In this document: piece after piece, positions 25,468-31,688 of the stretch | Position numbering within the stretch: the stretch's first letter is position 1 | Layout of the letters: every line of letters begins with the position of its first letter | Assembly (NCBI RefSeq): GCF_051903065.1 | Contig: NZ_CP178438.1 | DNA: 64,000 nt | From: Escherichia coli | GTDB taxonomy: Bacteria > Pseudomonadota > Gammaproteobacteria > Enterobacterales > Enterobacteriaceae | Strand: one strand, 5' to 3' | Program-made: the position numbers and the translations under genes | The notes under the pieces: generated by a model | What the model was told of the DNA's origin: nothing | Databases searched by the model: none | The model's input: only the letters and a program-made list of their open reading frames with translations

Positions 25468-26291
25468 GTGTGCTCATTAATGAAAAACTGCATTCGCGGC
25501 GGCTGAAATGGCGCTGGCCGCTCTCGCGTCAGGTGACCTTAAGCATTGGCACGTTAGCGGTTTTACTCACTGTATGGTGGACGGTGGCGGCGCTGCAACT
25601 GATTAGCCCGCTGTTTTTGCCGCCGCCGCAACAAGTACTGGCAAAACTGCTCACCATTGCCGGACCGCAGGGATTTATGGACGCCACGCTGTGGCAGCAT
25701 CTGGCAGCCAGCCTGACGCGCATTTTGCTGGCGCTACTCGCGGCGGTGTTGATCGGCATTCCGGTCGGGATCGCCATGGGGCTAAGCCCGACGGTGCGCG
25801 GCATTCTGGATCCGATAATCGAGCTTTATCGTCCGGTGCCGCCGCTGGCTTATTTGCCGCTGATGGTGATCTGGTTTGGTATTGGCGAAACCTCGAAGAT
25901 CTTACTGATCTATTTAGCGATTTTTGCGCCGGTGGCGATGTCGGCGCTGGCAGGGGTGAAAAGCGCGCAGCAGGTTCGCATTCGTGCCGCCCAGTCGCTG
26001 GGTGCCAGCCGTGCGCAGGTGCTGTGGTTTGTCATTTTGCCCGGCGCGCTGCCGGAAATCCTCACCGGATTACGTATTGGTCTGGGTGTGGGCTGGTCTA
26101 CGCTGGTGGCGGCGGAGCTGATTGCCGCGACGCGCGGTTTAGGATTTATGGTTCAGTCAGCGGGTGAATTTCTCGCGACTGACGTGGTGCTGGCGGGGAT
26201 CGCGGTGATTGCGATTATCGCCTTTCTTTTAGAACTGGGTTTGCGCGCGTTACAGCGCCGCCTGACGCCCTGGCATGGAGAAGTACAATGA
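25464..26291 (+). CDS. tauC: taurine ABC transporter permease
   Basis: 275-aa hydrophobic ORF; 4-bp overlap with tauB. Confidence 0.93.
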
Positions 26292-27139
26292 GTGAACGTC
26301 TGAGCATTACCCCGCTGGGGCCGTATATCGGAGCACAAATTTCGGGTGCCGACCTGACGCGCCCGTTAAGCGATAATCAGTTTGAACAACTTTACCATGC
26401 GGTACTGCGCCATCAGGTGGTGTTTCTGCGCGATCAAGCCATTACGCCGCAGCAGCAACGCGCGCTGGCCCAGCGTTTTGGCGAACTGCATATTCACCCT
26501 GTTTACCCTCATGCCGAAGGGGTTGACGAGATCATCGTGCTGGATACCCATAACGATAATCCGCCAGATAACGACAACTGGCATACCGATGTGACATTTA
26601 TTGAAACGCCACCCGCAGGGGCGATTCTGGCAGCGAAAGAGTTACCTTCGACCGGCGGCGATACGCTCTGGACCAGCGGTATTGCGGCCTATGAGGCGCT
26701 CTCTGTTCCCTTCCGCCAGCTGCTGAGCGGGCTGCGTGCGGAGCATGATTTTCGTAAATCGTTCCCGGAATACAAATACCGCAAAACCGAGGAGGAACAT
26801 CAACGCTGGCGCGAGGCGGTCGCGAAAAATCCGCCGTTGCTACATCCGGTGGTGCGAACGCATCCGGTGAGCGGTAAACAGGCGCTGTTTGTGAATGAAG
26901 GCTTTACTACGCGAATTGTTGATGTGAGCGAGAAAGAGAGCGAAGCCTTGTTAAGTTTTTTGTTTGCCCATATCACCAAACCGGAGTTTCAGGTGCGCTG
27001 GCGCTGGCAACCAAATGATATTGCGATTTGGGATAACCGCGTGACCCAGCACTATGCCAATGCCGATTACCTGCCACAGCGACGGATAATGCATCGGGCG
27101 ACGATTCTTGGGGATAAACCGTTTTATCGGGCGGGGTAA
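26288..27139 (+). CDS. tauD: taurine dioxygenase (alpha-ketoglutarate dependent)
   Basis: 283-aa ORF ([38 protein letters not shown]...); 4-bp overlap with tauC. Confidence 0.95.
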
Positions 27140-27149
27140 TACGAGAGTG

Positions 27150-27240
27150 GACGGTCCCCTCGCCCCCTTGGGGAGAGGGTTAGGGTGAGGGGGCGTTCAC
27201 CGTGCTTTCAACAGGTTAACTCCCCCTTTCTGAGAGGAAA
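27150..27240. other. G/C-rich structured intergenic element between convergent tauD and hemB (probable bidirectional terminator)
   Basis: cccctcgccccc...ggggagagggttagggtgaggggg is capable of stable hairpins; recalled as resembling a recurrent E. coli intergenic motif, unverified. Confidence 0.35.
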
Positions 27241-27245
27241 CAAAA

Positions 27246-28220
27246 TTAACGCAGAATCTTCTTCTCAGCCAAATCCAGCGCAAAGTAGCTGAAAATCAGA
27301 TCCGCACCCGCACGCTTAATCGAACCTAAGCTTTCGAGCACCACTTTCTCTTCATCTATAGCACCCGCCAGCGCGGCGAACTTAATCATCGCATACTCAC
27401 CGCTCACCTGATACGCGCCAATCGGCAATTCAGTACGTTCACGCAGCTCACGCACGATGTCGAGGTACGCTCCAGCAGGTTTAACCATCAGGCAGTCTGC
27501 GCCCTGGGCTTCATCCAGCAGTGATTCACGAATCGCCTCGCGACGGTTCATTGGGTTCATCTGATAGCTTTTGCGGTCGCCTTTTAATGCGCTTCCGGCA
27601 GCTTCACGGAACGGACCATAAAAGGAAGAGGCGAACTTGGTCGAATACGACATAATCGCCGTATCTTTAAAGCCCGCAGCGTCCAGCGCCTGACGAATCG
27701 CCTGTACCTGGCCATCCATCGCGGCGGAAGGGGCGATGAAGTCTGCACCTGCAGCAGCTGCAACCACGGCTTGCTTGCCTAAATTTTCCAGAGTCGCGTC
27801 GTTGTCGACGCCATGCTCGCACAGCACACCGCAGTGACCGTGAGAAGTGTATTCACAGAAGCAGGTGTCTGACATGACAATCATTTCTGGCACGGTCTGC
27901 TTGCAGATGCGCGACATACGCGCCACCAGTCCATCTTCCCGCCAGGCATCGCTGCCGGTTTCATCGGTATGGTGAGAGATGCCGAAAGTCATCACGGAAC
28001 GAATACCGGCGTTGGCGATGCGTTCAATTTCGCGTGCCAGATGTTTCTCTGGAATGCGCATCACGCCAGGCATGGCTTCAACGGCTTTGTAGTCGTCAAT
28101 TTCTTCTTCAACAAAGATCGGCAACACCAGGTCGTTAAGGCTAAGTGTTGTCTCTTCAAACATAGCGCGCAGCGCAGGAGATTTGCGCAGGCGACGAGGG
28201 CGTTGGATTAAGTCTGTCAT
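27246..28220 (-). CDS. hemB: porphobilinogen synthase (delta-aminolevulinic acid dehydratase)
   Basis: 324-aa product from the ATG at 28220 ([37 protein letters not shown]...). Confidence 0.95.
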
Positions 28221-28745
28221 GGTCTGCCTGATGTTTGTGGAATTAAGGTGCACAGTATACCTGAAGCGGGGCAGGAGTGTTTTACGAAAGTTGTCACGAT
28301 GTTGACAAGAAGAGAATGAAAGAGAGACCAGGGCATCTTTGTAATAGAAATAGCAATAACTTCATATTCACTGAAAATATTTTTTAATTTTTATTTATAG
28401 GTGCTGGTTATTATTTTTGCCAATTTGGTTGAACTGTCAAAAATTGAATTACTTAAAGTTCATTGCTTATTGATACATTATTTGTCTGATTTGTTGTTTT
28501 GGTATTTTTAGGATCTATAATTCAAAATTAATGATTTCATTAACGTGTTGAAATGCAGTGTTTTTGTCAACTTATTCTTTGTGCGTATAGATATTTTTAT
28601 ATATGTCCGCAATCGGACTTAGGGGAAAGAATAATTGAACCATTCCTCTATAACGCCGCATAATCGTCAACGCGAAACATAAGATGTTTTCTATGCATTG
28701 ATAATTGATGGATCAACTTATTACGTCCCTGAGGAGGGATGACAA

Positions 28746-31688
<2,943 letters not shown>

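Follow-up and report, generated by a model that had tools for sequence, protein, structure and literature searches.

In Escherichia coli, the ends of Rho-terminated transcripts lie directly downstream of stable stem-loops without a U-tract, which guard them against PNPase and RNase II, and 24% of these protective stem-loops are REPs (Dar & Sorek 2018). REP/BIME elements are dispersed extragenic palindromic repeats that stabilise mRNA 3' ends, since their transcribed stem-loops stop 3'-to-5' exonucleases. BoxC is a smaller family of about 20 copies per genome, compared with about 500 for REP. It was described in the early 1990s; the Maher laboratory later came upon it again and called it the 'PIT' element (Hoyne/Maher 2000-2002), as recounted by Holder et al. 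2015 (PMC4666352). BoxC copies are always intergenic, show no bias in strand, gene class or preferred ORF distance, and are commoner upstream than downstream of ORFs (Holder et al., PMC4666352). Tests of PIT elements by the Maher laboratory found neither promoter nor terminator activity and no effect on replication in vivo (as summarised in PMC4666352). Since orientation is unbiased, the neighbouring genes show no correlation in function (Holder et al.) and the copies are in excess upstream of ORFs, a role in RNA would be at most incidental for part of the family.

Here we describe a BoxC copy between the convergent genes tauD and hemB. The window is the whole stretch of E. coli DNA that was analysed (64,000 nucleotides of contig NZ_CP178438.1); its positions are used throughout and are obtained by subtracting 361507 from the K-12 positions. 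The genes and the parts of the repeat are as follows.

26288..27139, + strand: tauD CDS (taurine dioxygenase), stop codon included, from the ORF list; the RefSeq K-12 homologue is 387795-388646.
27246..28220, - strand: hemB CDS (porphobilinogen synthase), stop codon at 27246-27248; K-12 hemB is 388753-389727.
27157..27192, + being the G-rich strand: BoxC / PIT / TMECO core of 36 nt, CCCTCGCCCCCTTGGGGAGAGGGTTAGGGTGAGGGG, identical to TMECO no. 5.
27157-27167, + strand: C-block of the core, CCCTCGCCCC(C), followed by the loop TT and G-block 1.
27170-27179, + strand: G-block 1 of the core, GGGGAGAGGG, followed by the loop TTA and G-block 2.
27183-27192, + strand: G-block 2 of the core, GGGTGAGGGG, slightly different from G-block 1.
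27147..27196, no strand assigned: approximate full repeat unit, comprising the core and a semi-conserved tauD-side flank GTGGACGGTC, from alignment to 22 published K-12 BoxC copies.

The identities of both genes are backed by the RefSeq annotation of K-12 and other strains, and the tauD annotation is present in all matching genomes. The hemB frame in the ORF list extends over 27246..28253 (-). The original prediction had placed a G/C-rich element between convergent tauD and hemB, and the element is found there, in a spacer that measures 106 bp (27140-27245). BoxC begins 17 nt past the tauD stop and ends 53 nt short of the hemB stop, and is thus extragenic. In blastn searches the spacer is 100% identical in several genomes, including O157:H7 strains, and one base off K-12. 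It contains cccctcgccccc at 27156-27167 and ggggagagggttagggtgaggggg at 27170-27193, and ctccccc at 27220-27226 forms a second C-run. Even when up to 3 mismatches are tolerated, the window has a single copy of the 21-mer GGGAGAGGGTTAGGGTGAGGG and 100 shuffles have none, so the G/C-rich element is more than a product of chance. On the far side of hemB, an ORF of 980 aa (28746-31688, +) appears intact in the window; its K-12 homologue, the autotransporter gene yaiT, is a pseudogene split by IS3.

This element is a known copy of the repeat that has been named BoxC, PIT, TMECO and HPG1. Table 1 of Holder et al. 2015 (PMC4666352) lists the same 36-mer as TMECO no. 5, type 'A mm', at K-12 388664-388699. 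Kaplan et al. 2016 (PMC5100583) list it as HPGQ no. 13, with 31 on the tauD side (tauD >>> 31) and 54 on the hemB side (54 <<< hemB), and the entry eco:3 (eco:3_BoxC) in the supplementary E.coli_BoxC set of the 2008 stem-loop family catalogue (PMC2267715) is its exact reverse complement. The recurrent E. coli intergenic motif that had been recognised without a name is therefore BoxC, and this very copy stands in three publications; for the window, the outcome is mainly that a name has been settled. The copy has the three-block core CCCTC(T/G)CCC(C) - loop - (G)GGGAGAGGG - TTA/CCG - GGGTGAGGG(G) and agrees with the majority consensus of the 22 K-12 BoxC copies at 43/51 positions, the core being off by one loop base. 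It shares with the family the C, G and G' blocks, the TTA middle loop (type A), the G within the C-block ('mm'), the extragenic site and the copy number. The differences from the family lie outside the core: the hemB-side flank is GCGTTCA instead of the usual ..GGGGAACA, and the last G-run is also used by a locus-specific hairpin.

The motif was searched for across genomes. Of 5,426 complete E. coli genomes, 5,408 have blastn matches to the spacer, at 82,170 places in all; the median per genome is 17, K-12 has 19, and 82,120 of the places are chromosomal and 50 are on plasmids. The dispersed repeat is confined to the left part of the spacer, since 27196-27248, its right half, has no further copy in E. 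coli. An Rfam scan of 26500-28000 with E up to 10 returned only noise, the best hit in the interval scoring 17.5 bits (E 1.7) against a gathering threshold of 40, and the annotation of NC_000913.3 shows no repeat within 388647-388752. The element has neither a match to the REP consensus nor a REP/BIME annotation, and to our knowledge it bears no resemblance to the REP palindrome. BoxC and REP thus have no sequence similarity, and they differ further in the third block of BoxC, which allows alternative pairings and has triplex or G-quadruplex potential. REPs also have RAYT, whereas we know of no dedicated transposase for BoxC.

RNA folding of both strands bears out the alternative stable hairpins that had been proposed for the spacer. 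For the whole spacer, the predicted folding energy of the + strand is -44.1 kcal/mol, with z -2.0, and that of the - strand -38.4 kcal/mol, with z -1.25; both z-scores are modest. In the + strand RNA (27153-27196), the C-block is predicted to pair best with the distal G-block, including one G-U pair (-29.4 kcal/mol, z -2.9), and pairing with the proximal G-block would cost one G-A mismatch. Two stem-loops are predicted in the hemB transcript.

27157..27179, - strand: BoxC stem-loop, CCCUCUCCCCAAGGGGGCGAGGG, predicted -15.6 kcal/mol, z -2.3.
27188..27227, - strand: locus-specific stem-loop in the hemB 3' UTR, predicted -19.9 kcal/mol, z -3.4.

The 3' arm of the second stem-loop, GCCCCC, is the complement of the terminal G-run of BoxC. 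Both structures have been drawn before in the TRS data (PMC10687069), the locus-specific one upstream of the hemB 'primary' terminus and the BoxC one upstream of the 'alternative primary' terminus (Supplementary Data 3). On the tauD strand (+), 27187-27233 holds an alternative predicted hairpin, GAGGGGG...CUCCCCC (-19.9 kcal/mol), followed by UUUCU, which vies with the BoxC C-block for one G-run; by its modelled fold, this hairpin could be a weak, structure-switchable tauD terminator.

The G-rich strand also carries a canonical G-quadruplex motif, GGGG-AGA-GGG-TTA-GGG-TGA-GGGGG (27170-27193, +), whose four tracts of at least three Gs are separated by 3-nt loops. BoxC may accordingly be viewed as a DNA element, acting as an intrastrand purine-motif triplex or as a switch between G-quadruplex and hairpin that causes local genome instability or structural regulation, with RNA ends as by-products. 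By CD and NMR, Holder et al. (PMC4666352) showed that oligonucleotides of the type A-mm class fold in vitro into intrastrand triplexes that are stable, with a Tm of about 74 C, and a related HPG2 oligonucleotide switches in vitro between G-quadruplex and hairpin with different ions (Kaplan et al., PMC5100583). Rearrangement between E. coli strains is also greater at TMECO loci than at control sites (Holder et al., PMC4666352), and the tauD-hemB locus is itself polymorphic, with 106-bp, 39-bp and +51-bp alleles. However, DMS footprinting in vivo detected no protection of the G-stretches (Holder et al., PMC4666352), and the duplex is favoured whenever the complementary strand is present (Holder et al.; Kaplan et al., PMC5100583). 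The earlier functional tests of PIT elements gave no effect in vivo, the core is almost invariant across diverse strains that carry the BoxC allele, and excess polymorphism is expected of any repeat that is gained and lost. We therefore regard a primary role as non-B DNA as quite improbable.

Published maps of RNA 3' ends and of Rho-dependent termination bear directly on the RNA. The hemB termini given here are those in Supplementary Data 2 and 3 of the TRS re-analysis (PMC10687069), and the Rho region is one reported further downstream.

27176..27187, - strand: hemB mRNA 3' terminus cluster 1 (K-12 388683-388694, peaks 388687 and 388691), TRS, PMC10687069, labelled 'Primary'.
27139..27157, - strand: hemB mRNA 3' terminus cluster 2 (K-12 388646-388664, peaks 388660 and 388647), TRS, PMC10687069.
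26992, - strand: peak (K-12 388499) of a region of bicyclomycin-sensitive termination by Rho, antisense to tauD, Adams et al. 2021, PMC7815308, Supplementary file 2.

Cluster 2 is labelled 'Primary' in one TRS table and 'Alternative primary' in another (PMC10687069). Cluster 1 follows the 27188-27227 hairpin at a distance of about 8 nt, and cluster 2 lies 4‒17 nt 3' of the BoxC hairpin. With the folds reproduced here, both steady-state ends of hemB thus fall a few nucleotides past a predicted stable U-less stem-loop. The curated Term-seq lists of Adams et al. 2021 (PMC7815308) contain no end at K-12 3884xx-3887xx and never name hemB. The two datasets are divided on transcript ends in the spacer, the TRS termini placing hemB ends there and the curated Term-seq lists placing none, and this difference implies that the hemB ends are minor or depend on threshold and method.

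The Rho regions of Adams et al. 2021 were defined by DirectRNA-seq with and without bicyclomycin (PMC7815308). At 388499, the upstream/downstream reads are 86/33 without bicyclomycin and 146/213 with it, giving a Rho score of 3.80 (p 2e-9; PMC7815308); the score is computed over 800-nt windows and does not fix the exact termination site. The region lies about 160 nt further along the hemB strand. This bicyclomycin sensitivity shows that RNA polymerase from hemB runs through the spacer and that Rho halts transcription in antisense tauD, at about 26992. These published data thus speak against Rho-independent termination on the hemB strand.

The element had also been proposed as a bidirectional terminator, which in the intrinsic sense is not supported. 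If BoxC were a Rho-independent terminator releasing polymerase from both tauD and hemB, its features would be partly as expected: a G/C-rich hairpin is predicted on each strand between convergent genes, the hemB 3' ends of the TRS data directly follow hairpins, ends on either strand lie at the single BoxC between aaeR and tldD, and the + strand alternative hairpin (27187-27228) is followed by UUUCU. In contrast to intrinsic or 'bidirectional' terminators, however, BoxC has no U-tract. The sequence 3' of it is CGUUCACCGU on the + strand and GACCGUCCAC on the - strand, that 3' of the second - strand hairpin (27188-27227) is UCACCCUAAC, and none of them is U-rich; a terminator and promoter scan found nothing in the spacer. 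The bicyclomycin-sensitive read-through downstream, the empty spacer in the curated Term-seq lists (Adams et al., PMC7815308) and the PIT reporter assays, in which the elements had no terminator activity or effect on RNA polymerase (Maher laboratory, summarised in PMC4666352), also stand against it. Intrinsic termination at BoxC is therefore very unlikely. A preprint on collision termination mentions neither hemB nor tauD.

In the hemB transcript, BoxC is represented by its C-rich strand (CCCCCUCACCCUAACCCUCUCCCC), which could instead belong to a rut (Rho loading) site and so bring about the termination by Rho further downstream. The RNA of the hemB strand does reach its highest C/G ratio over BoxC, at 1.8‒1.9, and the Rho region follows about 165‒200 nt downstream. 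However, the C/G profile is ambiguous, half of the C-rich tract is locked in the predicted hairpin, and a stronger C-rich, G-poor stretch (antisense RNA C/G 2.7) lies further downstream, at about 26965-26888. In the scheme of Dar & Sorek 2018 the protective hairpins come first and rut sites lie downstream, and the Rho region between adk and hemH (498060) follows a BoxC in the opposite, G-rich orientation (TMECO no. 6), which argues that BoxC has no orientation specificity for Rho. We give the rut interpretation hardly any credence.

Termini of the same kind are found at other BoxC copies. Directly beyond BoxC, the TRS data have U-less termini at hrpB (164638, +), alx (3239706, +), tldD (3390482 and 3390499, -) and aaeR (3390541, +); the last two genes are convergent, and their shared BoxC (K-12 3390479-3390545) marks the ends on both strands. 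Among the 60-nt upstream windows of Adams et al., BoxC occurs at or near the end in those of 847200 (-), 3781065 (+, the primary end of lldD), 3959467 (-) and 4231270 (-). Taken over these two independent datasets, about 8 of the ~20 K-12 loci have BoxC with U-less 3' ends, in both orientations and with tails of 0‒17 nt. By a rough estimate, which is not a formal test and distributes a few thousand termini among 9.3 million strand positions, the number of such coincidences expected by chance is well below one. BoxC is mentioned neither by Dar & Sorek 2018 nor in the TRS paper (PMC10687069).

From these observations, we consider that the tauD-hemB BoxC is probably a REP-like stem-loop that acts as an exonuclease barrier and sets the 3' end of hemB, not an intrinsic terminator. 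Transcribed from either strand, the C-block and one of the G-blocks would form a very G/C-rich, U-less stem-loop. RNA polymerase coming from hemB would pass BoxC and continue into antisense tauD, where Rho would terminate the read-through. The tail would then be trimmed by 3'-to-5' exonucleases, which would stall at the BoxC stem-loop or at the adjoining stem-loop that contains the last G-run of BoxC, and this stalling may give rise to the discrete steady-state ends of hemB. The barrier would thereby define the hemB 3' end and probably stabilise the mRNA. Of the two roles that had been suggested for the element, terminator and mRNA stabiliser, the second is the better half: the termini just past the stem-loops fit it, and the stabilisation itself is what we infer from them. 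The same may apply to the tauD mRNA, for which an end near 27188-27195 is predicted; tauD is induced by sulfate starvation, and its expression is not expected in the media used.

The hemB 3' region resembles the protective stem-loops of Dar & Sorek 2018 in the U-less stem-loop, the precise 3' end nearby and the bicyclomycin-sensitive read-through beyond. It differs from them in having two tandem stem-loops and two clusters of ends, and the dependence on PNPase and RNase II, which is their finding, would carry over to hemB by analogy. The likeness to REP/BIME elements consists in dispersed extragenic palindromic repeats at the 3' ends of Rho-terminated transcripts, and probably also in the stopping of 3'-to-5' exonucleases by the transcribed stem-loop. 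Such a barrier would account for how hemB manages without an intrinsic terminator.

The spacer between tauD and hemB is of three types among the 5,426 E. coli genomes. About 3,600 genomes have the 106-bp BoxC spacer, and about 1,800 (about one third) have an unrelated 39-bp spacer, GGGGGAAATGCCGGGTTGGATAACCCGGCATAATGATCA, as in APEC O1 (NC_008563.1 405719-405757). The two alleles differ over the entire spacer and in the last tauD codons. In a rare third allele, found in a few genomes such as E. coli M8 (NZ_CP019953.1), BoxC is preceded at its left edge by an insertion of 51 bp. The M8 insertion is flanked by the near-repeats GGACGGTCACCTCG and GGACAGTCCCTTCG, as if duplication or recombination had added a partial left end of BoxC. 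Seven diverse strains that carry the BoxC allele have the same core, except for a one-base change in the length of a C-run. Since the core is invariant at the locus and the cross-phylum pattern described below fixes both G-blocks, there are no compensatory changes to score. The 39-bp spacer contains a perfect 10-bp hairpin in its core, with a predicted energy near -17 kcal/mol on either strand and z-scores of -3.7 and -4.4. Both alleles thus place a strong predicted hairpin between the stop codons, which suggests a need for some 3' hairpin and not for BoxC as such.

That about one third of E. coli genomes lack BoxC at this site counts against an exonuclease barrier formed by BoxC, and it fits a neutral or selfish dispersed repeat that has no selected function here, came with an inserted or recombined spacer and has only incidental RNA ends. 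The absence of any reported orientation or gene-class bias for the family points the same way, as does the occurrence of the three-block core in genome-specific flanks across many phyla and in-frame in genes of a Gracilibacteria MAG, a behaviour typical of mobile mini-elements. On the other hand, 3' termini lie next to BoxC far more often than chance allows, genomes with the BoxC-bearing allele hardly vary in the core, and the alternative allele retains a strong hairpin at the same site, suggesting selection for a hairpin. A neutral origin is also compatible with an exonuclease barrier, which needs only a later use of the repeat. We judge it unlikely, though worth serious weight, that BoxC is without a selected function at this locus.

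BoxC-like cores recur outside E. coli. When species-representative genomes were scanned with the core pattern, at least 120 stretches in at least about 17 MAGs matched, and the true range is wider than these matches show. Among the matches listed, the core CCCTC(T/G)CCC - loop - GGGAGAGGG - NNN - GGGTGAGGG is present in several to about 30 copies per genome, and the hosts are alpha-, gamma- and deltaproteobacterial, Verrucomicrobia, Nitrospirales, Armatimonadota and Gracilibacteria MAGs and one unclassified MAG; no Enterobacteriaceae are among the matches listed. The C-block precedes the two G-blocks in nearly every listed copy, the flanks are genome-specific, and inverted pairs of the core occur, as in E. 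coli. For the gene context, only the A/T-rich Gracilibacteria result is trustworthy, since stop-to-stop ORFs are unreliable in G/C-rich genomes. In the Candidatus Gracilibacteria MAG JALNXF01 (genetic code 25), 17 of the 20 motif copies lie in-frame inside long ORFs, where they encode PHPNPLPEGEG or LTPTLSQRERE. These ORFs include the following.

L091 10338-12284, - strand: LepA.
L091 3054-4517, - strand: MiaB.
L093: IleS.
L085 1721-2959: SufS-like desulfurase.

The copy in LepA lies within a 44-residue insertion relative to solved LepA structures, and that in the SufS-like protein within a smaller insertion of about eight residues. These in-frame copies hint at insertion in the style of the Rickettsia palindromic elements (RPE), and at mobility. 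The Gracilibacteria relatives are like RPE in being short palindromic copies in-frame in conserved housekeeping genes, whereas the sequences are unrelated and E. coli BoxC is strictly extragenic. It is conceivable, but rather unlikely, that the BoxC core is a cross-phylum mobile mini-element that E. coli has co-opted as an orientation-independent exonuclease barrier setting mRNA 3' ends. If this were true, BoxC would be a second REP-like system and would have its first concrete function.

The value added by the present analysis is modest: BoxC copies, the present one included, coincide with U-less mRNA 3' termini in two independent datasets and in both orientations, a connection that we did not find stated in the BoxC or the 3'-end literature consulted. 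If the role of BoxC is confirmed, the spacer alleles of natural E. coli would provide a ready-made comparison at tauD-hemB, and genome annotation could mark BoxC as a 3'-UTR element. The functionally orphan BoxC would then gain a REP-like role in the definition of mRNA 3' ends.
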